The notes under the pieces were generated by a model. That model had not been told where the DNA came from. It was given only the letters and a program-made list of their open reading frames with translations, and made no database searches. Source: an uncultured Gammaproteobacteria bacterium (GTDB taxonomy: Bacteria; Patescibacteriota; Microgenomatia; UBA8517). From it: a stretch of 64,000 nt of DNA. Positions 5,401-55,831 of the stretch are shown one piece after another. The position numbers and the translations under genes were made by a program. The number at the start of each line of letters is the position of its first letter. Within the stretch, counting starts at the first letter, position 1. The stretch is from assembly GCA_964627195.1 (NCBI GenBank), contig CAZVJU010000001.1, positions 9,066 to 73,065 on the forward strand, in the 5' to 3' direction.

Positions 5401-5525
5401 TTTATAACAGCATTCAAGAAAGCTCCAGGCTTTCAGCCTGGAGATGAATTGAACGCTGTTCGTCATCCTCTTTAGAAGAAACCCCCGAGTCATACTCGGG
5501 AGAGGATGTTATTAACTCTCGGTTT
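5401..5525 (+). repeat. Two-hairpin repeat element, copy 1 (family also at 37161-37276 and 55536-55651)
   Basis: Shares TTTATAACAGCATTCAAGAAA, ATGAATTGAACGCTG and CATCCTC...GAGGATG blocks with the other copies. Its apical stems are CTCCAGGCT/AGCCTGGAG and CCCGAGT/ACTCGGG. It overlaps the last codons and the stop of the NUDIX gene. Confidence 0.85.
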
Positions 5526-5930
5526 AAAGTAGTCAGGAAGTTCTGAAAAGTTTTTTAATTCCTCTTTGGTAAACCACCTTACCTCCTCCTGATCTTCAAG
5601 TGGTTTAGCTTTTCCGGATTTCCACTTACACAAAAATGTTAAACCAACAACATGATGTCCACTAACTCTGGTAAAACCATCGTTCTCAATTAATATTACT
5701 TCATCTTCTATCTCAATTCCTACCTCTTCCATCACCTCTCTTTTTAAAGTACTTTCCAATATTCCCCTTCCTTCTTCCAAATCTACCTTTCCTCCAGGAA
5801 CCGACCAAACTCCTGGTGCTTGCGGATCGTTTACACTTCTTTTCGCCAACAAAATCTTTCCGTCTTTTTCAACAAAAGCGAATACTGCAACGACATGAGT
5901 AGCAATATCTGTTTCTTTGGGTTTATTCAT
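5490..5930 (-). CDS. NUDIX hydrolase
   Basis: Nudix box GGKVDLEEGRGILESTLKREVMEEVGI (GX5EX7REUXEEXGU). Confidence 0.85.
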   Translation of the reverse strand: MNKPKETDIATHVVAVFAFVEKDGKILLAKRSVNDPQAPGVWSVPGGKVDLEEGRGILESTLKREVMEEVGIEIEDEVILIENDGFTRVSGHHVVGLTFLCKWKSGKAKPLEDQEEVRWFTKEELKNFSELPDYFKPRVNNILSRV

Positions 5931-10902: not shown

Positions 10903-13190
<2,288 letters not shown>

Positions 13191-34300: not shown

Positions 34301-35380
34301 TCACCTGCGAATTGATCCTGTCAGTTCATAAATTGGCGAGATAATTGACAGAGCTAAAAAGCCTACAAATAACCCAATAGCAATAAGGAGAACTGGTTCG
34401 ATGACACTGCCCAGATTTTTGCTTATGTCATCCACTTCGTCTTCATAAAAGACGGCCAAGTAAAGCAAAGTCTCATCCAATTTACCGGTTTTTTCTCCAA
34501 CCGCAACCATTCTTGATACAAGCGGAGGGTATTTACTAAACTTAATATTCTCCATAGTACGCCCCACATCTTTCCCTTTAGCCAAAGACGATGAGATGCT
34601 CAAAAGCTGTCTTCTAAATTGGATATTTGATAAAGTGTCAGCAGTAACTTCCAAGGCTTTTATAATTGGCGTACCGCTTTGCAAAAGTGTTCCCAAATTT
34701 CTCGAAAACTGGGCCAGTTGGGAATAACTGACCAGCTCTCCGATAACAGGTATTTTTAATATGACTGCGTGCCAATAAGGTTTTACTCTTGGGAGCTGAA
34801 TAGCAAATCGGGTAAGGATGAGAACTCCGGCAAGTCCCAAAAAAATAACTATGCCGTAATCTCTCATTGTCGTGCCCATAAATAAGAGCACTTTTGTACT
34901 AAAGGGAAGATCAATCTCAAAAGATTCAAAAAAATCAACTAACCTGGGAAGAATAAAAAATGAAATGAAGCTACCGACTACCAGTGCCAAAGATAAAACT
35001 AGGCCGGGATAAATGAGAGCACTTCTTACCTTTTTCTTGAGAGAGTGACTTTTGACAAGTTGGTCAACCAAAAATTCCAAATTGTCTACCAAAGTACCGG
35101 AGGTTTCACCTATTTCAATGAGGCTGATATAAAAATCGTCAAACCAGCGCGGATGCTTTCTGAAAGAATCGGCCAAAGACTTCCCGTTTTTAACATCAGA
35201 AAGAACTGCAGTAAGAACTTCTTTGAAGTAACTTGATCGGGTTTGCGAAGCCAACGTCTCTAACACTTCTGTTACAGGCAAACCAGCCTTCAACATCACA
35301 GAAATATGTTTAGTGAAAACAAGTTTTTCCTGCTGATTAACTTTTTTGAATATAGTAAATGACTGGGCAGAATTAGACAT
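34301..35380 (-). CDS. pilC: Type IV pilus platform protein PilC (T2SS F family)
   Basis: Two T2SSF-type repeats (LKAGLPVTEVLETLA... and LLQSGTPIIKALEVTA...) and 3 TM helices. Confidence 0.9.
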   Translation of the reverse strand: MSNSAQSFTIFKKVNQQEKLVFTKHISVMLKAGLPVTEVLETLASQTRSSYFKEVLTAVLSDVKNGKSLADSFRKHPRWFDDFYISLIEIGETSGTLVDNLEFLVDQLVKSHSLKKKVRSALIYPGLVLSLALVVGSFISFFILPRLVDFFESFEIDLPFSTKVLLFMGTTMRDYGIVIFLGLAGVLILTRFAIQLPRVKPYWHAVILKIPVIGELVSYSQLAQFSRNLGTLLQSGTPIIKALEVTADTLSNIQFRRQLLSISSSLAKGKDVGRTMENIKFSKYPPLVSRMVAVGEKTGKLDETLLYLAVFYEDEVDDISKNLGSVIEPVLLIAIGLFVGFLALSIISPIYELTGSIRR

Positions 35381-35430
35381 ATTACAGATGTCACCTTTAA
35401 TTCAGAACTATAAATGGCGTGACATATGCC

Positions 35431-35473
35431 AAAGAAATCACATTTTTAAACTTAAATAAAATGTGATTTCTTT
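35431..35473 (-). promoter_or_regulatory. Perfect 16-bp hairpin between pilB and pilC
   Basis: AAAGAAATCACATTTT (35431-35446) pairs with AAAATGTGATTTCTTT (35458-35473). The right arm overlaps the pilB stop codon. Confidence 0.45.
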
Positions 35474-37283
35474 ATTCTTTGGTAACTCGAATTATTTCCT
35501 CTATTGTGGTTACTCCACTTTTCACCTTATCAACTCCGTCATCAAGCATTGTTTTCATACCTGCCTTTTTAGCAATTTCCAAAAGGATTCCAGCATCCTT
35601 TTTGTCTACTATTGCTTCACGTATCTTACGATCAACACTCAGAACTTCGAAAATACCGACCCGCCCCAAATAGCCAGTATAGTGGCAGGGATCACATCCC
35701 TTACCTTTATATATATGACCTTTTAGCGTATCTTTAAATTTATCAAGAATAGAGTCATTTATTCCTGAAATTAGCCCATTTTCACCTAACTCCCCACCTT
35801 GGATAATTTCTTCAACACCCACCGAAATCCTGCACTTCTGACAAATTTTCCTGACCAATCTTTGGCCTATCACTATATTTACGCAAGATGAGATCAAAAA
35901 CGGCTCAACCCCAAGATCAAGCAACCTAGGAAAGGCGGTTACCGCATCATTTGTGTGAAGAGTTGACAAAAGCAGATGGCCCGTCATGGCAGCATTGACT
36001 GAAATATCAGCAGTTTCCTGGTCCCGAATTTCCCCTACCAATATAATATCAGGATCCTGTCTGACTATTGCCCTTAAACCTTTAGCAAAAGTAAGATCGG
36101 TTTTAGGATTAGCCTGAATTTGATTGACGCCTTCGATTCCATATTCAACCGGATCTTCAATAGTCATTATATTAACCTTTCTTTCATTCAGGATTTTTAA
36201 AATTGCGTAAAGCGTCGTTGTCTTCCCACTTCCGGTCGGACCAGTTACCAGGATCATTCCGTGCGGTTTTTTATAGGCATCTTCCAACACTCTGAGATTG
36301 TCCTCAACCAAACCCAAGTCTTGAAGTGAAAATTGGCGGGATTTTTCCGACAGAAGACGCATGACTACTTTTTCTCCATTTGTAATTGGGACAATTGAAA
36401 CTCGAATATCCAAGTCTTCATCTTGGGTAGAGTAGCTTATTTTTCCATCTTGGGAAGACTGATGTTCATCCGTTCTTAGTTTAGCTAGCACCTTCACTCT
36501 AGTAATTATTTGAGAATGAAGTGTCTCAGGAAGTTTAACAATATCGTGCAAAATTCCATCAATACGGAAACGCACAAGCGACATCTGTTTTAAAGGTTCT
36601 ATATGGACATCTGAAGCTGAATTTTGATATGCATATTGGATGATCAAATCAACAATTTTAACTATCGATGGCTCCGGAATCACGGATCCCTTTACTCTCC
36701 GAAGGCTTTCCTTAATTATCGTGTCAAAAACCTCTTCTACATCTTTAGCATACAAACTCAATCCATTTGTGATATCTCTTTTTGATGAATAATAAGGGAT
36801 AACCTTTACCCCAACCTTTTTCTCTACAAACTGAATAGTCTCTTTGTCTAAAGGATGCTCCATTGCTACATGCAATCCCGCTTTGTCCATTTTGAAGGCA
36901 ATCAGTCTTTGTTTTTTGGCATAGATTTCAGGTAACATTTTGGCAACTTTTTCGTCTATGCCGACTGTCGATAAATTTATGTAAGGGACGGATATAATGT
37001 CAGAAATTACTTTACCTACATTCTCATCGGAAATTAATTCTCTATCAACTAAAATTTGTCCCAGAGGAATTTTTTGGTCTTCTGAGTCCTCGGAAGCCTG
37101 GTCTAATTGTGAAGACGGAATTACTCCAAGCTCCTTAAGTTCGTTATATAGATCTTCATTTTTATAACAGCATTCAAGAAAACCACGGGCTTCAGCCCGT
37201 GGATGAATTGAACGCTGTTCGTCATCCTCTTTTTTAGAGGAAACCCCGCCTTTCAAGGTGGGGAGGATGTCATAAAGGCTCAT
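35472..37283 (-). CDS. pilB: Type IV pilus assembly ATPase PilB (GspE family)
   Basis: Walker A GPTGSGKTT, Asp/His boxes, Walker B ILVGEIRD, a C-terminal CxxC...CxxC cluster and a T2SSE_N domain (LGQILVDRELISDENV). The first 41 codons are encoded by repeat copy 2. Confidence 0.93.
   Translation of the reverse strand: MSLYDILPTLKGGVSSKKEDDEQRSIHPRAEARGFLECCYKNEDLYNELKELGVIPSSQLDQASEDSEDQKIPLGQILVDRELISDENVGKVISDIISVPYINLSTVGIDEKVAKMLPEIYAKKQRLIAFKMDKAGLHVAMEHPLDKETIQFVEKKVGVKVIPYYSSKRDITNGLSLYAKDVEEVFDTIIKESLRRVKGSVIPEPSIVKIVDLIIQYAYQNSASDVHIEPLKQMSLVRFRIDGILHDIVKLPETLHSQIITRVKVLAKLRTDEHQSSQDGKISYSTQDEDLDIRVSIVPITNGEKVVMRLLSEKSRQFSLQDLGLVEDNLRVLEDAYKKPHGMILVTGPTGSGKTTTLYAILKILNERKVNIMTIEDPVEYGIEGVNQIQANPKTDLTFAKGLRAIVRQDPDIILVGEIRDQETADISVNAAMTGHLLLSTLHTNDAVTAFPRLLDLGVEPFLISSCVNIVIGQRLVRKICQKCRISVGVEEIIQGGELGENGLISGINDSILDKFKDTLKGHIYKGKGCDPCHYTGYLGRVGIFEVLSVDRKIREAIVDKKDAGILLEIAKKAGMKTMLDDGVDKVKSGVTTIEEIIRVTKE
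37161..37276 (+). repeat. Two-hairpin repeat element, copy 2 (inside the pilB 5' end)
   Basis: The same conserved blocks as copy 1. Its apical stems are CCACGGGC/GCCCGTGG and CCCCGCCTT/AAGGTGGGG. Confidence 0.85.
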
Positions 37284-37318
37284 TGTTCTTACTATCTTCT
37301 TGGCATTTAGGCTGGTTT

Positions 37319-37693
37319 TTAAACCCCATCTTCGAGAATTTTTTTTATCTTTGCCAAAACCTCCTTCATCGTAAGATCGGTTTTAACTATATAATCATTA
37401 GCACCCATTTGTACTGCTTTAACGACATCATCAGGCTGACTTAAGTTTGAAGCCACAATAATCGGAGTATTTTTCCATTTAGCATTTTTTTTTATTTCTT
37501 CCAAAAATGAAAATCCATCCCTCACAGGCATCATTAAATCGAGGATTATTAAGTCTGGCAAGAAAGAATCCAGAGCTTGGAGGGCCTCATCACCATTACT
37601 TACCGTTTTTACTTCATATTGAGCCTTAGATAATTTTACACGGTAAGCACTTGCCAAAAATTTATCATCCTCGGCAATTAGTATTTTCTTCAT
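37319..37693 (-). CDS. Single-domain response regulator (receiver only)
   Basis: Motifs ILIAEDD, IILDLMMPVRDG and a conserved Lys region (IVASNL...). I prefer the start MKKILIAEDD. Confidence 0.9.
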   Translation of the reverse strand: MKKILIAEDDKFLASAYRVKLSKAQYEVKTVSNGDEALQALDSFLPDLIILDLMMPVRDGFSFLEEIKKNAKWKNTPIIVASNLSQPDDVVKAVQMGANDYIVKTDLTMKEVLAKIKKILEDGV

Positions 37694-37801
37694 AAAACCT
37701 CTTTCAAAACTCACCTTTCAGGTTCGTTTTGAGAGCTCACGCTAGCTTACACTGAGTAGCAGTGCCAAGCTTTGCTTATATGAACTAGTTTTAAAACCAG
37801 T

Positions 37802-38185
37802 TCATAATATTCCAAGTTCATATTTAACTTTTGCAATCACTTCATCTAACTTCCAATCAGTTTTCACTAAATAAGTGTTTACGCCTCTTTCCCGGCTTTC
37901 TCTGATACTGTCTGCTTTGGAAAGATTACTAAGAATAATAACGGGGACCTTCTTACCCCAATCATCTTCACGTAACTTATCAAGCATCGTAATTCCATCC
38001 ATCTCAGGCAAAATTAAATCCAATAAAATAAGATCAGGATGTTCCTGGAGTGCAACTTCTAAACCACTCACGCCGTTAAATGCTACGAGAACCTGAAAGT
38101 CTGAATCTTCCAGCTTCTTTTTTAAGGCTTTAACCGAAAACATCTCGTCTTCAACGATCAAAATTTTATATTTTTTGTCTGACAT
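37802..38185 (-). CDS. Single-domain response regulator (receiver only)
   Basis: Motifs ILIVEDE and ILLDLILPEMDG. It is 127 aa with no output domain. Confidence 0.9.
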   Translation of the reverse strand: MSDKKYKILIVEDEMFSVKALKKKLEDSDFQVLVAFNGVSGLEVALQEHPDLILLDLILPEMDGITMLDKLREDDWGKKVPVIILSNLSKADSIRESRERGVNTYLVKTDWKLDEVIAKVKYELGIL

Positions 38186-38208
38186 ACCAAATTGTATTAT
38201 CTTACTTC

Positions 38209-38610
38209 TCAGACAGATTTTTGATTCTCTGTTATGACCTCGTCAATAATTTTTACAATGTCATCCAGACGATACTGAGCTTTTAGGAGATATTTTTTAG
38301 CTCCAAGTGCAAACATTGCTTTTTTCTTTTCTTCGCCTGCAGAATTACTTACGACAATAACTGGGATACTGCGCCATTTGGCATTATTACTAATCTCGAC
38401 CATAAAATCCATTCCACTCATCTCAGGTAGATAGTAATCTAGCCAAATAGCAGTTGGGTTCTCATCCAAATTTTTCAAATAGTCTATTGCCTGCTTTGCC
38501 GATATACAAGTAATGGTGGAGTAGCCGCTTACTTTTAACTTTTTCGCAATAACCTGAAGTAAGGTTACTTCATCCTCCACAACCATTATTGTTTTTGCCT
38601 CTGATACCAT
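38209..38610 (-). CDS. Single-domain response regulator (receiver only)
   Basis: Motifs MVVEDE and IWLDYYLPEMSG. It is 133 aa with no output domain. Confidence 0.88.
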   Translation of the reverse strand: MVSEAKTIMVVEDEVTLLQVIAKKLKVSGYSTITCISAKQAIDYLKNLDENPTAIWLDYYLPEMSGMDFMVEISNNAKWRSIPVIVVSNSAGEEKKKAMFALGAKKYLLKAQYRLDDIVKIIDEVITENQKSV

Positions 38611-38639
38611 ATCTATACTTTACCACAAAATCCGCATTT

Positions 38640-40310
38640 TTAAGAGTCTAGACTCACCTCACCATCTTTAGAAGAAATTCCGAGCGAAGGTAGTATAAAC
38701 CAAAAAGTCGTTCCTTTCCCTTCCTCGCTTTCAAACCATATCTTGCCACCCGAGGAATCAACAATTGCTTTGGTCAAGTATAGCCCTAAACCAGTTCCGT
38801 CTGTCTCTATCCCAATAATATTTTTGGAGCGGAAAAACTTAGTAAATACTTTTTCCTGATCACGCTTAGGAATTCCGAAACCGTTATCTGAAATTTGAGA
38901 AATTATTTCATTTCCTGATTTCGAAATAAGCACAACTATCTCACCACCCTCAGGAGTGTATTTAATTGCATTCGTCAATAAATTCATATAAACGTGTCTG
39001 GTTAACTTAGGATCAATTTTGATTTTTGGAAGTTCCCCATGGACACTAACAATAAGTTTGTGATTTTTTTTCTGTATTTTGGGTTGAAGTTCCAAAACAA
39101 CTTGATCCACTAAAGTTTTTATGTCGGTAGGCTCGGGATCAATAATTATTCTCCCGGATTCAATTCTTGAGATATTAAGAAGAGTGTTAACAAGCCCTAT
39201 CATCCGCTCGTTTGACTGATAAATGTTCTCTACTAACTCTTTCTGCTCGGCATTTAGAGATCCCATCTCTCCGTCAACTAGCATTTCAGTAAACCATTTT
39301 ATTGCAGATAGTGGAGTTCTCAGCTGGTGGGATGCTAGAGAAATAAACTCCGTTTTCATCCTGTCAACCTCTCTTTCTTTAGTCACATCTCTGAAAACAT
39401 CGATTCCCCCGATTACCAATCCGTAAACTACCACCGGAGTTGCGGTTATCGAAACTGCAAATTGCGAACCATCCTTTCTTTGATAATAATAACTGTTACT
39501 TATGACTTTTTTATTTGAATAAAGAGCATTCCTTATAGGTCTTTCCGAAACAGGAACTTCATTTCCTTGCCCATCGATTAGTTTTATTGAATGAATCAGG
39601 GATTTACCCATAAGTTCTTCCTCTCTCCAACCAGTCAAAATTTCTACCTGTTTATTTATAAAAATTATTTCCCCTTTGTTATTTATACCAATCACACCGT
39701 CACCGATATTTTCCAACATCACTTCGATCTTCGCCTTAGACGCTTCAACCTCACGATTTTTTACAATCAAATCCTGCCGTATCTTATCTATATCTTCCCC
39801 TCTAGTATAAAAAAGGTTAGAACACCCTATCTCGAGCTGAACCCATTCCGCCAAATCTCTTAAAGTCTCTCTTTCAATTTCAGAGAGACGTCTTGATATT
39901 CTGTCAGCAATAAATAAAACACCAATAATATTTCTATCCTCTATTTTTATGGGCGCTCCGGCATAGAACTTAAGATTTGGTCCCGAAGTGACTAATGGAT
40001 TTTTAGTATACAACCCGTCAACCCCAGTATCTTCTACCAAATAAAGATCTTGGGAGCGTAAAACTTCATTCTCAAACGAATTCTCACGAGGAAGCTCTAT
40101 GTTTAAGAGGCCTTGAACAGATTTATACCAAATCCTATTCCTGTCAACTAAAGATATTCCAGAAACCGGGACGCTGAATAAGCGGGTGAGTAGCCTTGTA
40201 ATTCTGTCAAACCTTTCTTCCTTCGGGGTATCAAGAATCCGCATGGATGAAAGTGTCTGCAAGCGTCTCTTCTCCAAAACCTGAGGATCAATCTGGGCAG
40301 TTTGAATCAT
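38640..40310 (-). CDS. Soluble sensor histidine kinase (GAF-PAS-HisKA-HATPase_c)
   Basis: H-box SHQLRTPLSAI, N-box NLLTNAIKYTP, G-boxes DNGFGIP and GTGLGLYL. The N-terminus has a GAF-like region and then a PAS-like region. I see no TM helix. Confidence 0.9.
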   Translation of the reverse strand: MIQTAQIDPQVLEKRRLQTLSSMRILDTPKEERFDRITRLLTRLFSVPVSGISLVDRNRIWYKSVQGLLNIELPRENSFENEVLRSQDLYLVEDTGVDGLYTKNPLVTSGPNLKFYAGAPIKIEDRNIIGVLFIADRISRRLSEIERETLRDLAEWVQLEIGCSNLFYTRGEDIDKIRQDLIVKNREVEASKAKIEVMLENIGDGVIGINNKGEIIFINKQVEILTGWREEELMGKSLIHSIKLIDGQGNEVPVSERPIRNALYSNKKVISNSYYYQRKDGSQFAVSITATPVVVYGLVIGGIDVFRDVTKEREVDRMKTEFISLASHQLRTPLSAIKWFTEMLVDGEMGSLNAEQKELVENIYQSNERMIGLVNTLLNISRIESGRIIIDPEPTDIKTLVDQVVLELQPKIQKKNHKLIVSVHGELPKIKIDPKLTRHVYMNLLTNAIKYTPEGGEIVVLISKSGNEIISQISDNGFGIPKRDQEKVFTKFFRSKNIIGIETDGTGLGLYLTKAIVDSSGGKIWFESEEGKGTTFWFILPSLGISSKDGEVSLDS

Positions 40311-52977: not shown

Positions 52978-53892
52978 CTATTGGGTTGCTGCTAATTTTT
53001 TTGAACTGAGAGACATTTCCCATTTGGCAGTACTCTTGTCTACAAAAAGGTTCATCAAATTAGCATAGAAATATATAAACAAGTAAAGTATAGACTGTAA
53101 AGGGTTTTTCACTACAAGAGGAAATGCTTTCGTGACAAGTAATCTGAATGGGATAGAAAAACTCTTGTCTACAAGATTTTCGTTAAAAATCTCTTTTAGT
53201 CGCCTTCTTGAACCTAAGAATCTGACACTTTGACTAAAATGTCCGCGCAGCCTATGGGGGAATTTAAAATAAACAGCAGCTTTTGGCTCATATTGAAATA
53301 AGTATCCATCAGAAAGGCACCTAAGATAAGAGTATGCATCTTCACCGCTGATTGCCGGCCATTTAATTTTTTTTGCGAAATCTTTTGAGAAAACACGGAA
53401 TGCACCATGACACAAATAAATATTATTCCCGTCGTTCATGTTTTCAAAAAGACTTAATTTCACCTCTCTACTGAAAAATAGTGTCTTCTCGAGAAGATTT
53501 CTGGGTCTTAAAGGAATAATTTTCCCACCAACCAAACCGATTTTAGTATTTCTGCTAAAAGGTTCGATAATTCTTTCAATTACCAAGCTATTTTTCGGAA
53601 GCACATCAGCATCGAGAAGAACAAGATAATCCGAACTAAAGTTTTTTAAAATTATATTCTGAGTCAAAGCCTTTCCTAATCTTTTATTATTTACTAATAG
53701 TATTATTGTTCCGTTTTTTAGTGATTTAACTTCTTCCTCAGTTTTATCCGAGCTACAATCTGAAATTACAATTATTTTTTGAATTTTTAAATTTAATTGT
53801 TTCTGTGCTAACAAAGACTTAAGCAAATTTTTAATATTTGCCTCCTCGTTGTAAGCTGGAATTCCGATTGTCACAGTTGGTTTTTTTCTCAT
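52978..53892 (-). CDS. GT2 glycosyltransferase
   Basis: Motifs IGIPAYNEEANI, SDCSSDKT and LLDADV. Confidence 0.8.
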   Translation of the reverse strand: MRKKPTVTIGIPAYNEEANIKNLLKSLLAQKQLNLKIQKIIVISDCSSDKTEEEVKSLKNGTIILLVNNKRLGKALTQNIILKNFSSDYLVLLDADVLPKNSLVIERIIEPFSRNTKIGLVGGKIIPLRPRNLLEKTLFFSREVKLSLFENMNDGNNIYLCHGAFRVFSKDFAKKIKWPAISGEDAYSYLRCLSDGYLFQYEPKAAVYFKFPHRLRGHFSQSVRFLGSRRRLKEIFNENLVDKSFSIPFRLLVTKAFPLVVKNPLQSILYLFIYFYANLMNLFVDKSTAKWEMSLSSKKLAATQ

Positions 53893-54848
53893 GTTTTTTC
53901 CGTTCCTTTTATTGCTAATAACTCTTTATGAAAACCCTTTGGCAAAAGTTTTATATCTCTATCCGGATTAAGATTAAGAAGCTCCAGGTCCCGAATGCGC
54001 TTCGCATTTTTCCTGCCAACACGTTGGTTAAGTAACGTTAGTGTTTTATAAACCAAAAGAGGGACTATTAACTTTTTTAACCCTTTACCATAAAGCCTTT
54101 GAAGAAGACGGTTTCGAACTATTGAGTCTTGCCAATGAACACACAGAGGAGCAGTGGCACTATAAGCGGTAATTCCCCAACCAGCTTCCTCCCAATCGGT
54201 AAGATAAATTATATTTCTTTGTAACAAAATATTACTTGCGTTGATGTCTGCGTGAATAAGTCCTTTGTCGTATGTCCCGATACGGAAAAGCGGTAAAACT
54301 TTCGGAGTAGTCATGAGAATTTTAAATGACGAAAAGGGTGAAAGAAAAACCGATTTCAAAAGCCTCAACGGCAAGTACAAAAGTAAAGCTTTGACTGAGT
54401 AGTCTTTGAGATAAAGATTTATTGAAAAGCGCTGGGTTTTTCCGCTTAATTTCTCGATAAGCTCAAGCACTACCGTAAGAATTTCTGCTTTTTTATTAGA
54501 TTCCTCATCCAAAAGTTTCTTGCCTTTTATGTAGCGGGAAATTAGACAAATAACTTCTCCCTGATTGATGATTTTATCCACTTCCGGGACTAGTAAACGG
54601 TATCCTTTATATTCAAAAAGCGTTTTTTTGGTCAGTTGGGATAGATATTGACTAACTCTGGATTCGGCAAAAAGAGATTTATATGTATAGCTTTTTTTAC
54701 CAACAACTGCTTTCACAAAAAACTTATTTCCTTTTGTATTTGAAACAATTCCATGAAAGCGCCCAAATTCATCCTTCTCAATCGGAGTAATCTCCCGGTA
54801 ACCGTTTTGTCTTACTATATTAGTAATGTTTAAGCCTTTTTTTGTCAT
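53889..54848 (-). CDS. APH/choline-kinase-like small-molecule kinase
   Basis: Catalytic loop IHADINASNIL (HxDxxxxN) and the metal-binding LTDWE. Confidence 0.6.
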   Translation of the reverse strand: MTKKGLNITNIVRQNGYREITPIEKDEFGRFHGIVSNTKGNKFFVKAVVGKKSYTYKSLFAESRVSQYLSQLTKKTLFEYKGYRLLVPEVDKIINQGEVICLISRYIKGKKLLDEESNKKAEILTVVLELIEKLSGKTQRFSINLYLKDYSVKALLLYLPLRLLKSVFLSPFSSFKILMTTPKVLPLFRIGTYDKGLIHADINASNILLQRNIIYLTDWEEAGWGITAYSATAPLCVHWQDSIVRNRLLQRLYGKGLKKLIVPLLVYKTLTLLNQRVGRKNAKRIRDLELLNLNPDRDIKLLPKGFHKELLAIKGTEKT

Positions 54849-55831
54849 AGCTGTGATACTAATTTTTCAAGTCTTTTTAGATAAAATTTTTCTTGCTCGG
54901 CTTTGGTATATTTTTGACTTAGTCTTTGTAAAAGATTAAAGACAACAAAAGATCTCAATAAATCTTGTTCACGCTTATCAAGACGAAACGTACTAACCGT
55001 TTTTTTCCAAAAAAGATTATGGAATCCTTTCTGAGACCAAGCAGAATTTAATGTTTGCGAAAGATCATAATAACAATGACTTACACAGGTGTGGGCAAAG
55101 TCAATTACAAGAGTTTTTTCGCCTGCAACAAGAACATTCCCAACGTTAATATCTCCATGACAAAGGGAGTTAGTTCGAAGCTTCAGCCATTTGGAAAAGT
55201 AACGCATTAGTGCAAAAAACGTACGAGTGAATAAAGGTGCATGGGCAGGATAAAAAAATACATTTTTCAAAAGGAAATATGGCAATGATACAATCTGATA
55301 AGTAGAAGTTCTTGTTATTACTTGAGCGCTTCTCCCAAAGTCAAAATTTTTATTCATAGTTTCCAGCAATTTCAGTACCTTCAAATAAGATTTAATACGG
55401 ACTAGATTTTTTTTCAAGGTAATTATTTGGGCACCGGAAATGTATTCCATAACCAAAGCCTTGCCGTTTGCGCTATCTATAATTTTTAAAGGTTTTGGTA
55501 TAATTACATCTGTATTCCCAATCTTTTTATACTCTTTATGACGTCCTCCCCCGTTCAATGGACGGGGGTTCCCCCTTAAAGAGGACGACAAATCAGCGTT
55601 CAATTCATCCCCGCCATAAATGGCGGGGTTTTCTTGAATGCTGTTATAAAAAAGTGTATGACCAATGTATTCTTTTTCCAATGAAGACTGCTCATTGCCA
55701 ATTTTTATAAATACTTTCTTTCCGCTTTTTTTATCTTTATACACACCTTTATCTGTGGAACTTAACCCGCTGAAAATCTTTTCTAGTAATATGTAGCGAT
55801 TTTGTAATATAGTCATAAGTGTCTTAGGCAA
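54845..55831 (-). CDS. APH/choline-kinase-like kinase carrying a repeat-element insertion
   Basis: Catalytic loop [12 protein letters not shown] and VIDFAH. The residues [33 protein letters not shown] are encoded by repeat copy 3. Confidence 0.6.
55536..55651 (-). repeat. Two-hairpin repeat element, copy 3 (inside a kinase-like ORF)
   Basis: The reverse complement aligns end to end with copies 1 and 2. Its apical stems are CCCCGCCA/TGGCGGGG and CCCCCGT/ACGGGGG, and its basal stem is CGTCCTC/GAGGACG. Confidence 0.85.

Follow-up and report, generated by a model that had tools for sequence, protein, structure and literature searches.

A gene for the pilus ATPase PilB in an uncultured bacterium carries, close to its start codon, a short two-hairpin repeat that also occurs at two other places nearby, and the question is what this repeat is and how it came to lie within a gene. 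The DNA analysed, here called the window, is a stretch of 64,000 nucleotides (GenBank assembly GCA_964627195.1, contig CAZVJU010000001.1, positions 9,066 to 73,065; Genome Taxonomy Database lineage Patescibacteriota, Microgenomatia, UBA8517). An initial annotation, made from the sequence of the window, had presented the repeat as a mobile family resembling Rickettsia palindromic elements (RPEs), with a derivative of the IS200/IS605 insertion sequences as an alternative. We consider it very probable that this repeat belongs to the IS200/IS605 family as a non-autonomous member, of the kind called a palindrome-associated transposable element (PATE), in bacteria of the candidate phyla radiation (CPR). 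End geometry of the IS608 type, guide complementarity, a right end common to tnpA- and tnpB-bearing elements and the nearest Rfam families all favour this identity at the sequence level, and hence the alternative that the initial annotation had named.

Structure and distribution of the repeat

All three copies that had been reported were found at their places, with shared invariant blocks and with two hairpins in which the stems vary by compensatory changes. The 21-mer TTTATAACAGCATTCAAGAAA has three exact occurrences in the window (0.02 expected), and the 15-mer ATGAATTGAACGCTG also occurs three times, each time exactly. The extents had to be corrected; the conserved unit starts with AACAGC directly after a flanking TTAT and ends in GTCAT. 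The copy in pilB, referred to as the focal copy, runs from 37166 to 37273 on the plus strand (108 nt, AACAGC...GGATGTCAT), antisense to pilB, to which it adds 36 codons. Copy 1 runs from 5406 to 5512 on the plus strand (107 nt, and not to 5525) and copy 3 from 55538 to 55645 on the minus strand (108 nt). The covariance model described below scored the focal copy, copy 1 and copy 3 at 115, 97 and 115 bits, respectively. The left flanking TTAT of copy 1 is at 5402-5405 (plus strand), and the right end of this copy is TTAT instead of TCAT; the TTAT of copy 3 is at 55646-55649 (minus strand). On folding, the two hairpins of each window copy gave z-scores of -5 to -8 on either strand. With filters off, the covariance model detected no fourth copy in the window, and the whole window gave no match to Rfam at gathering thresholds and no gene in a tRNA scan.

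As the initial annotation had proposed, the invariant blocks were searched for across genomes. An exact two-block pattern (GCATTCAAGAAA-N14-30-ATGAATTGAACGC) was run on a collection of species-representative genomes and matched 55 loci beyond the window, all in about 25 metagenome-assembled genomes (MAGs) of Woesebacteria, Microgenomates and Patescibacteria; the window itself is not among them. A consensus was made from 40 full copies, and the alignment behind it was used to build a covariance model, R1. At the 55 genome loci R1 found about 60 copies, including diverged ones that the pattern had missed, and in groundwater metagenome contigs it found at least 69 two-hairpin copies (100 of at least 120 loci scanned). 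Our search of the literature on Woesebacteria or CPR together with palindromic repeats or MITEs (miniature transposable elements with inverted repeats) found nothing relevant. Many MAGs with the element are titled 'uncultured Gammaproteobacteria bacterium' (binchicken co-assemblies; L002, L008, L010, L015, L016, L020 and others). These titles look like mislabels, as a Woesebacteria-type element stands there amid CPR-like genes.

A typical copy is 105-111 nt long, without room for a protein-coding open reading frame (ORF) of its own. The left part of the consensus consists of TTAT, AACAGCATTCAAGAAAAC, a variable 8-bp stem with its loop and GATGAATTGAACGCTGATATGTCATCC; the right part consists of TCC-TTTAGA-GGA-AAC, a stem CCCCGC..GCGGGG with a variable interior, and AGGATGTCAT. 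In the focal copy (positions on the plus strand) hairpin 1 as a whole occupies 37166-37219, as judged from folding and from basal-stem covariation in diverged copies (CAAA/TTTG in L029, CTCGA/TCGAG in L049). Its basal stem, AACAGC-A-TTCAA / TTGAA-C-GCTGTT, starts at the first base of the element and is followed by a conserved internal loop, GAAAA / ATGAA (37178-37182 and 37203-37207), and by the apical stem-loop CCACGGGC-TTCA-GCCCGTGG (37183-37202). For hairpin 2 a small three-way junction is the better description, with CATCC/GGATG as the outer stem, TCC-TTTAGA-GGA as a mini-hairpin and CCCCGCCTT-TC-AAGGTGGGG (37244-37263) as the apical stem-loop. The element closes with a 10-nt right tail, AGGATGTCAT (37264-37273). 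Both hairpins of the initial annotation are backed by covariation, the second in this redrawn form.

Over 42 full-length copies, 95.9% of the cells are paired, against 35-44% when the partners are slid by 1-3 columns, and both sides have changed in 21 of the 36 pairs. Compensatory (double-change) cells number 169, against 39±5 after shuffling, and none of 500 shuffles reached the observed values, so the compensatory changes first noticed in the window are real. They affect 7 of the 8 pairs of the hairpin 1 apical stem and 6 of the 8 pairs of the hairpin 2 apical stem.

Ends, insertion site and predicted guide pairing

TTAT immediately 5' of AACAGC and GTCAT as the right end were each found in 98-101 of 102 unique copies. 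Further upstream the sequence has background composition, and the right flank is merely A-rich (43-56% A at positions +1 to +4). The imperfect 8-bp terminal inverted repeat of the initial annotation largely dissolves on this comparison: TTAT is the predicted target and flanks the element, and the AAA that follows GTCAT is a preference only (54-56% of the copies have A). At the level of sequence the host genes are in keeping with an insertion 3' of TTAT that makes no duplication. Empty sites reconstructed at the protein level for PilB, a D-Tyr-tRNA deacylase and a kinase-like protein (see below) agree with duplication-free insertion, and a 2-bp AT duplication gives the same sequence. Duplication of TA, as in Tc1/IS630-like elements, was ruled out, since it would leave a stop codon in pilB.

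An AT duplication in a TTATAA-like target is what a MITE moved by a DDE transposase would produce, with AACAGC / GACATC as its short terminal inverted repeats. AT does stand on both sides of the core in nearly all copies, the reconstructed empty sites are the same as in the duplication-free model, and the A-rich right flank makes the target resemble the palindrome TTATAA. However, as inverted repeats the two termini agree in only 4 of 6 bases (6 of 12 in a longer comparison), the element lacks symmetry between its ends, where the subterminal hairpins differ, and the flanks are unequally conserved (about 100% for the left TT against about 55% for the right AA). In addition, the right end is common to elements with a Y1 transposase, and the TA duplication is excluded by the pilB stop codon. 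We regard a DDE-type MITE as extremely improbable.

The geometry of the ends matches that of IS608, the model of IS200/IS605 'peel and paste' transposition (PMC3201880, PMC5934647); the element studied here is known from its sequence. In IS608 the left cleavage and target site, TTAC, is not part of the element and precedes the left hairpin by 19 nt, and the right site, TCAA, is internal and follows the right hairpin at 10 nt; the sites are recognised by the guides AAAG and GAAT, 5' of the hairpin feet (PMC3201880, PMC5934647). In the repeat the predicted target and left cleavage site (C_L) is the TTAT at 37162-37165, outside the element and 17 nt from the foot of the hairpin 1 apical stem, which is predicted to be the left subterminal palindrome (IP_L). 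For the right cleavage site (C_R) the prediction is TCAT (37270-37273), with which the element ends; on its 5' side, at exactly 10 nt, is the foot of the hairpin 2 apical stem, predicted to be the right subterminal palindrome (IP_R). Directly 5' of the two feet stand the predicted guides, AAAA on the left (G_L, 37179-37182) and GAAA on the right (G_R, 37240-37243).

Of the pairs between cleavage site (c) and guide (g) in IS608, c1:g2 and c2:g1 correspond to A+17:T-4 and A+16:T-3 (PMC5934647), and one A of each guide is inserted into the protein (PMC3201880). The rule that we applied consists of the pairs c1:g2, c2:g1 and c4:g4, with g3 unpaired. The c4:g4 pair, with g3 as a flipped base, is said to have been described by Barabas and colleagues in 2008, and both features are consistent with the four published IS608 tetranucleotides (TTAC/AAAG and TCAA/GAAT). 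The repeat satisfies the rule at both ends (TTAT/AAAA and TCAT/GAAA). It shares with IS608 the left site outside and the right site inside, the right spacing of 10 nt, the guides 5' of the hairpin feet and the first three positions at both ends; it differs in the fourth pair, which is T:A at both ends, in the left spacing (17 instead of 19 nt) and in having no internal tnpA or tnpB.

Natural variation among the copies follows the same rule. On the left, TTAT/AAAA is present in 38 of the 42 copies of the first set; the sole copy of this set with TCAT on the left, L029:7011, has GAAA as its left guide, as the rule predicts. Among 61 unique metagenome copies the left combinations were TTAT/AAAA (36 copies), TTAT/AACA (12), TTAT/AAGA (2) and TTAT/AATA (2), so that where TTAT is kept with an AACA, AAGA or AATA guide the change is limited to the unpaired position g3. 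CTAT/AGTA, in one metagenome copy, is a compensatory C:G at c1:g2. The exceptions are six scattered left combinations of one or two copies each. On the right, TCAT/GAAA was found in 20 of the 42 copies of the first set (plus alignment-register variants) and in 57 of the 61 metagenome copies.

By analogy with IS608 we infer mobilisation by TnpA, its single-strand chemistry and current activity of the family. A dimer of TnpA (Y1, HUH), made elsewhere, would act in trans on the single-stranded top strand and bind both subterminal hairpins, at the apex of hairpin 1 (IP_L) and of hairpin 2 (IP_R). Pairing of the guides AAAA and GAAA with TTAT outside the left end and with TCAT at the right tip would place the cleavages. 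The element would then leave as a single-stranded circle and re-insert 3' of another TTAT without target duplication. Because TnpA would need both hairpins and blocks, the stems could drift with compensation while the unpaired blocks stay invariant; only lineages that keep the recognition features would produce new copies, which would hold the blocks invariant across species.

Transposase-bearing relatives, hairpin variants and related RNAs

A scan of metagenome contigs for the right-end module, GAAACCCCGC-N4-14-GCGGGGAGGATGTCAT, gave at least 120 loci. A text search for two left-arm blocks found at least one of them in about three quarters of the 122 matches listed. At four loci (L058, L073, L129 and L174) the module GAAA-CCCCGC..GCGGGG-AGGATGTCAT lies 40-55 nt past the stop codon of a tnpA ORF, which is IS200-like in each case (Pfam Y1_Tnp, E-values 8e-26 to 6e-39). 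At L149 the same module lies 56 nt past the stop codon of a tnpB (OrfB_IS605 and Cas12f1-like_TNB). A search for TnpA homologues gave 1168 matches. The L073 TnpA has a relative with 90% identity on an 18-kb groundwater contig (L176), where the right end is identical, and another with 68% identity on an 84-kb groundwater contig (L180), where the right end has diverged; both relatives have ends of the same kind on their flanks. The left ends of the tnpA-bearing elements read ...CAG-GAAA, then a hairpin CCCCGCAC...GTGCGGGG, then ATGAATGG. The layout of hairpin 1, G-AAAA-C[stem]G-ATGAATTG, matches these left ends, and R1 aligns one of them.

A tnpB (OrfB_IS605) followed by exactly this right-end module was seen on GC-rich, haloarchaeon-like contigs (L149, around 1200-2578, and L094, L116, L150 and L145). 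As the same module is present there and on AT-rich CPR elements, the right end is conserved across very distant hosts. At L176:760-790 the right end is followed by TTTTAAT directly after GTCAT, and TTTTTAAT precedes the left end; in this subgroup the right boundary may lie beyond GTCAT, or a 7-nt repeat may flank the element. A NUDIX gene lies beside the tnpA element of L180, as one does at copy 1 in the window; a shared insertion hot spot was rejected, the two NUDIX proteins not being orthologues (24% identity).

Several observations weigh against the assignment to the IS200/IS605 family. A crude scan for HUH and Y motifs and a clustering of neighbouring genes found neither tnpA nor tnpB, be it in the window or at up to about 4 kb from a genome copy (55 loci of 8 kb), no autonomous element with exactly this left end was found, and the contigs that carry tnpA are not assignable to Woesebacteria. 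The left spacing is 17 nt, against 19 nt in IS608, and a diverged subfamily (L046:3367) has TTAC at both ends, which fits the rule on the right and breaks c4:g4 on the left. The element boundaries rest on family conservation and on protein-level reconstruction, with PilB homologues that are at most 58% identical. There is a weak strand bias in the stems: G·T wobbles number 39 on the model strand and 19 on the other (about 2:1), and a fixed A·C mismatch on the model strand is a G·T pair on the opposite strand. Finally, GC skew is negative throughout the window, which makes it one replichore, and its three copies face both ways; a strict lagging-strand bias would predict a single orientation.

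The family also has structural variants: solo hairpin-1 forms ending in ...GCTGATATGTCAT, forms with a shortened hairpin 2, and forms with extra hairpin modules. ATGTCAT is present as a direct repeat on either side of hairpin 2 and bounds the solo-hairpin and short forms, so the short forms look like repeat-mediated deletions. The solo hairpin-1 copies were considered as left ends of full-length elements; this was rejected because the genes downstream are ordinary (for example FtsA-like). An extra hairpin module between the two standard hairpins, ATGTCAT-GCTTCGAT..ACTCAGCATGATACTGAG..GTCGAAG-TATCAT, recurs in several genomes (L049:3892-4049, L049:2159-2349, L035:4707-4862 and L060/L125/L128), and its boundaries, which are (A)T(G/A)TCAT-like repeats, suggest modular growth by hairpin-plus-GTCAT units. 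Some elements contain between hairpins 1 and 2 a tandem unit of about 26 nt (gcttttgataaaatcttaagctttgc, at least three copies), at L132 (minus strand, about 11160-11324) and L158 (minus strand, about 460-621); these tandem units are an expansion of an inserted module.

There are also single-hairpin relatives of about 45 nt, in which TTTTTAAT-(A/C)xCCAG-GAAA is followed by a hairpin, CCCCGCAC TTTA GTGCGGGG, and by AGGATGTCAT (L077:128-162, L086:8265-8299, L097 on the minus strand, L078, L090 and L084/L106). Each stands directly 3' of a different GC-rich hairpin with a T-run, resembling an intrinsic terminator, and the same combination of a hairpin and TTTTTAAT is found on the left side of the tnpA-bearing elements L073, L174, L176 and L180. 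Either this subgroup targets terminators, or the terminator-like hairpin is part of its left end.

Repetitive extragenic palindromic (REP) sequences and bacterial interspersed mosaic elements (BIMEs) are marked by hairpins that have GTAG conserved on their 5' side and often form inverted pairs, and by a REP-flanked gene for a REP-associated tyrosine transposase (RAYT). The repeat could be a REP/BIME-like sequence serviced by a domesticated, single-copy RAYT (TnpA_REP) and not a mobile IS200 element. The hairpin modules are each followed by (A)TGTCAT, solo and extra-module forms exist, the copy number per genome is low to moderate, and no adjacent transposase was found at the 55 genome loci, all as such a system would have it. 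On the other side, the repeat has its two hairpins in direct orientation, where those of BIMEs are inverted, each stem is preceded by GAAA(C), and TTAT and TCAT at IS608-like spacing are conserved in place of a 5' GTAG. Ordinary tnpA/tnpB elements have an identical right end. Nor did we see a RAYT gene with copies on its flanks: among the 882 ORFs of the genome loci none had an HUH...Y transposase motif, and in an all-against-all BLAST of these ORFs the recurrent neighbours were glycosyltransferases and housekeeping genes only, with no family that could be a RAYT or an autonomous partner. A domesticated RAYT as the mobilising enzyme is therefore very unlikely in our view.

PATEs were first defined in Haloquadratum walsbyi (PMC3119063) and have been noted in Geobacillus stearothermophilus (PMC10055086). 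By definition they have near-terminal palindromes, no terminal inverted repeats and no target duplication, are too short for a transposase, and have a targeting sequence of 4-5 nt on the 5' side and a longer distance from start to palindrome at the 5' end; terminal-only forms arise by deletion of the core between repeats (PMC3119063). The repeat resembles them in its transposase-less length, in palindromes near both ends without a real terminal inverted repeat, in ends that can be explained without a target duplication, in its 4-nt targeting sequence on the 5' side, in a start-to-palindrome distance that is longer on the 5' side (17 nt) than on the 3' side (10 nt), and in shorter 'terminal-only' forms made by deletion between direct repeats. 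Unlike the PATEs described so far, it resides in CPR hosts (Woesebacteria/Microgenomates), a long basal stem prolongs its hairpin 1 to the first base, copies in frame within conserved genes make up a notable share, the net length is biased to multiples of three, and the transposases found so far are not tied to the genomes that carry it.

The Rfam families nearest to the repeat are RNAs of archaea. In a permissive search HgcC (RF00062) scored 28.2-34.3 bits on five copies (best E-value 3e-5; gathering score 50), and sot0042 also matched below threshold. By the Rfam criterion the element is related to HgcC and is not a member. HgcC and sot0042 have been linked with RNAs derived from PATEs and with the 3' (right) end of tnpB genes of the IS1341 type (PMC4615843), and in Thermococcus three HgcC transcripts start within transposase genes and two more lie inside ordinary ORFs (PMC4247193). 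With HgcC and the sotRNAs (RF02656) the repeat shares the motif order of a GC-rich hairpin, GAUGA..UGAAC, a mini-hairpin, a CCCCGC..GCGGGG hairpin and AGGAGGUCA, and with the Thermococcus HgcC transcripts it shares residence within ordinary ORFs (PMC4247193). In contrast to HgcC, the repeat has 11-16 nt where the model has its middle 37-38 nt, and unlike those of HgcC and the archaeal sotRNAs the hosts are bacterial and the element is known from DNA.

The copies could be kept mainly as RNA genes or cis-acting RNAs, namely HgcC- or omega-RNA-like guides for TnpB in trans, terminators or mRNA stabilisers. The repeated sub-threshold matches to HgcC and sot0042 on several copies speak for this, as do the expression of PATE-derived RNAs in archaea and the omega RNAs often encoded by PATEs (PMC4615843, PMC10055086). 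Read on the minus strand, the hairpin 1 apex has a textbook terminator shape, with TTTTCTT directly after the stem-loop, and copy 1 lies at a gene 3' end in the matching orientation. However, copies occur in both orientations relative to genes and within coding sequence, no tnpB was seen in the window or around the 55 genome copies, a 108-nt element faces an HgcC model of 130 nt with a gap of 22-27 nt in mid-model, and the flanking TTAT and the pairing of site and guide are features of DNA transposition. RNA function as the main reason for keeping the copies is thus unlikely; an RNA role could hold in addition to the PATE identity.

Copies within genes

In the window pilB (T2SSE ATPase; 35472-37283, minus strand) retains its native start codon and carries the focal copy after codon 4. 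Its homologues (best identity 58%) have PF05157 and PF00437, none of them covers the first 12% or so of the window protein, and several begin with MSAYKNEDLY, MPLYEDSALY or MPAYDNLNLY. Deletion of the 108 nt at 37166-37273 gives ATG AGC CTT TAT AAA AAT GAA GAT and the homologue-like start MSLYKNEDLY. Native sequence here is the ATG (37283-37281) plus seven bases (codons 2 and 3 and one base, the first, of codon 4); in the ancestral protein Y4 and K5 were neighbours, and the element has put 36 codons between them. The initial annotation had let the element supply the start and the first 41 codons of pilB, which this reconstruction contradicts; the comparison it had proposed with PilB homologues that lack the element returned an insert-free N-terminus of the MSAYKNEDLY type, matching the reconstruction. 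In the pilB transcript the reverse complement of hairpin 1 is followed by UUUUCUU, a terminator-like site about 80 nt into the gene. On the minus strand pilB belongs to a run of genes (34301-40310) that also holds a pilC-like gene, a gene for a histidine kinase of 556 aa and three for CheY-like response regulators of a single domain; the focal element is at the junction of the last CheY-like regulator and pilB.

Copy 3 lies in frame and in sense orientation in a kinase-like ORF (54845-55831, minus strand; Pfam APH). Its removal gives ...TLFYKEYKK..., against ...TLFEYKGYR... in a tandem paralogue. The two APH/kinase-like paralogues (53889-55831, minus strand; 319 and 328 aa), of which only the upstream one has the element, form an internal comparison with and without it. 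The right end of copy 1 supplies the last seven codons and the stop of a NUDIX ORF (5490-5930, minus strand), outside the NUDIX Pfam domain, which ends at residue 128 of 146.

Most genome copies are intergenic or at gene ends, and about 10 of 60 lie in long open frames. By Pfam, in-frame hosts include a P-type ATPase (347 + 38 + 454 residues), a D-Tyr-tRNA deacylase, a DUF192 protein and several PMT/ALG-like membrane glycosyltransferases, besides the APH-like kinase and PilB of the window. In the D-Tyr-tRNA deacylase (L010) the Pfam match is split at profile position 123 of 144, and removal of the element restores the canonical spacing. Two peptides recur in the sense frame (29 and 28 letters) and one in antisense, YDILP.LK.GVS...QRSIHPR...RGFLECCYK; DILPTLKGGVSSK and DELNADMSSSFR are examples of the predicted element-derived peptides. 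A peptide search for in-frame copies among 5.8 billion proteins returned only 13 tiny ORFs and so gave no census of host proteins.

Glycosyltransferases of the GT2 type recur near the copies (18 ORFs in 9 of the 55 genome loci), as do PMT/ALG-like ones, and several in-frame hosts are glycosyltransferases of this recurring class. This recurrence may reflect variable cell-envelope islands or tolerance of insertions in loops.

Of 85 unique full copies, 61 have a net length divisible by three and 75 have at least one stop-free frame, the latter against 56±4 after shuffling, with related copies counted as independent in both figures. As signs of selection for tolerance within genes these biases are suggestive only. 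Under the PATE mechanism, copies in coding sequence would persist if their net length is divisible by three and one frame is free of stop codons, and would then add about 36 residues.

Residence of this kind had given rise to the comparison with RPEs, which are reportedly (Ogata et al., 2000) short palindromic repeats lying in frame in conserved genes and adding peptide segments to them. The repeat does behave in this way, as a short palindromic sequence within conserved genes that leaves the frame unbroken, and the view of it as a DNA-level mobile repeat that can reside in frame stands. The family label is not favoured, as the architecture of the ends points to IS200/IS605; the likeness is one of behaviour only. 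A separate selfish palindromic family like the RPEs, with a mobilisation mechanism of its own, without relation to insertion sequences and specialised for in-frame insertion, would account for the copies in the P-type ATPase, the deacylase, the PMT-like glycosyltransferases, the APH-like kinase and PilB, and for the length and frame biases. The IS200/IS605 end signatures, the right end identical to that of tnpA- and tnpB-bearing elements and the intergenic or gene-end position of most copies speak against such a family, and we give it very little credence.

For the PATE that we prefer, a more tentative proposal is that its lineage has been shaped by selection for life inside the coding sequence of gene-dense CPR genomes; we consider this possible and rather doubtful. 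A net length in multiples of three and one stop-free frame per orientation would be its signs. If true, the repeat would be the IS200/IS605 counterpart of the RPEs, placing about 36 residues in proteins such as PilB, the P-type ATPase and the D-Tyr-tRNA deacylase. A further possibility is that an HgcC-like transcript serves as an in-trans guide-RNA scaffold for a TnpB nuclease, in which case each copy would protect its own insertion site.

As a class the proposed mechanism is already known, and the known picture of such elements is unchanged. Less expected are the CPR host range, the clean covariation of site and guide, and the apparent tolerance of, or adaptation to, coding sequence. With the PATE identity, a repeat of Woesebacteria/Microgenomates gains boundaries, a target (TTAT), predicted cleavage and guide bases and a covariance model, and IS200/IS605 PATEs would be extended to the candidate phyla radiation. 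The natural variation of sites and guides offers comparative support for the IS608 pairing rule outside model systems. The element would explain the 36-residue inserts that gene callers meet in conserved proteins; the extra N-terminal peptide predicted for PilB, if produced, would be transposon-derived. The bias to multiples of three and to stop-free frames hints at selection for tolerance within genes in these small, gene-dense genomes.

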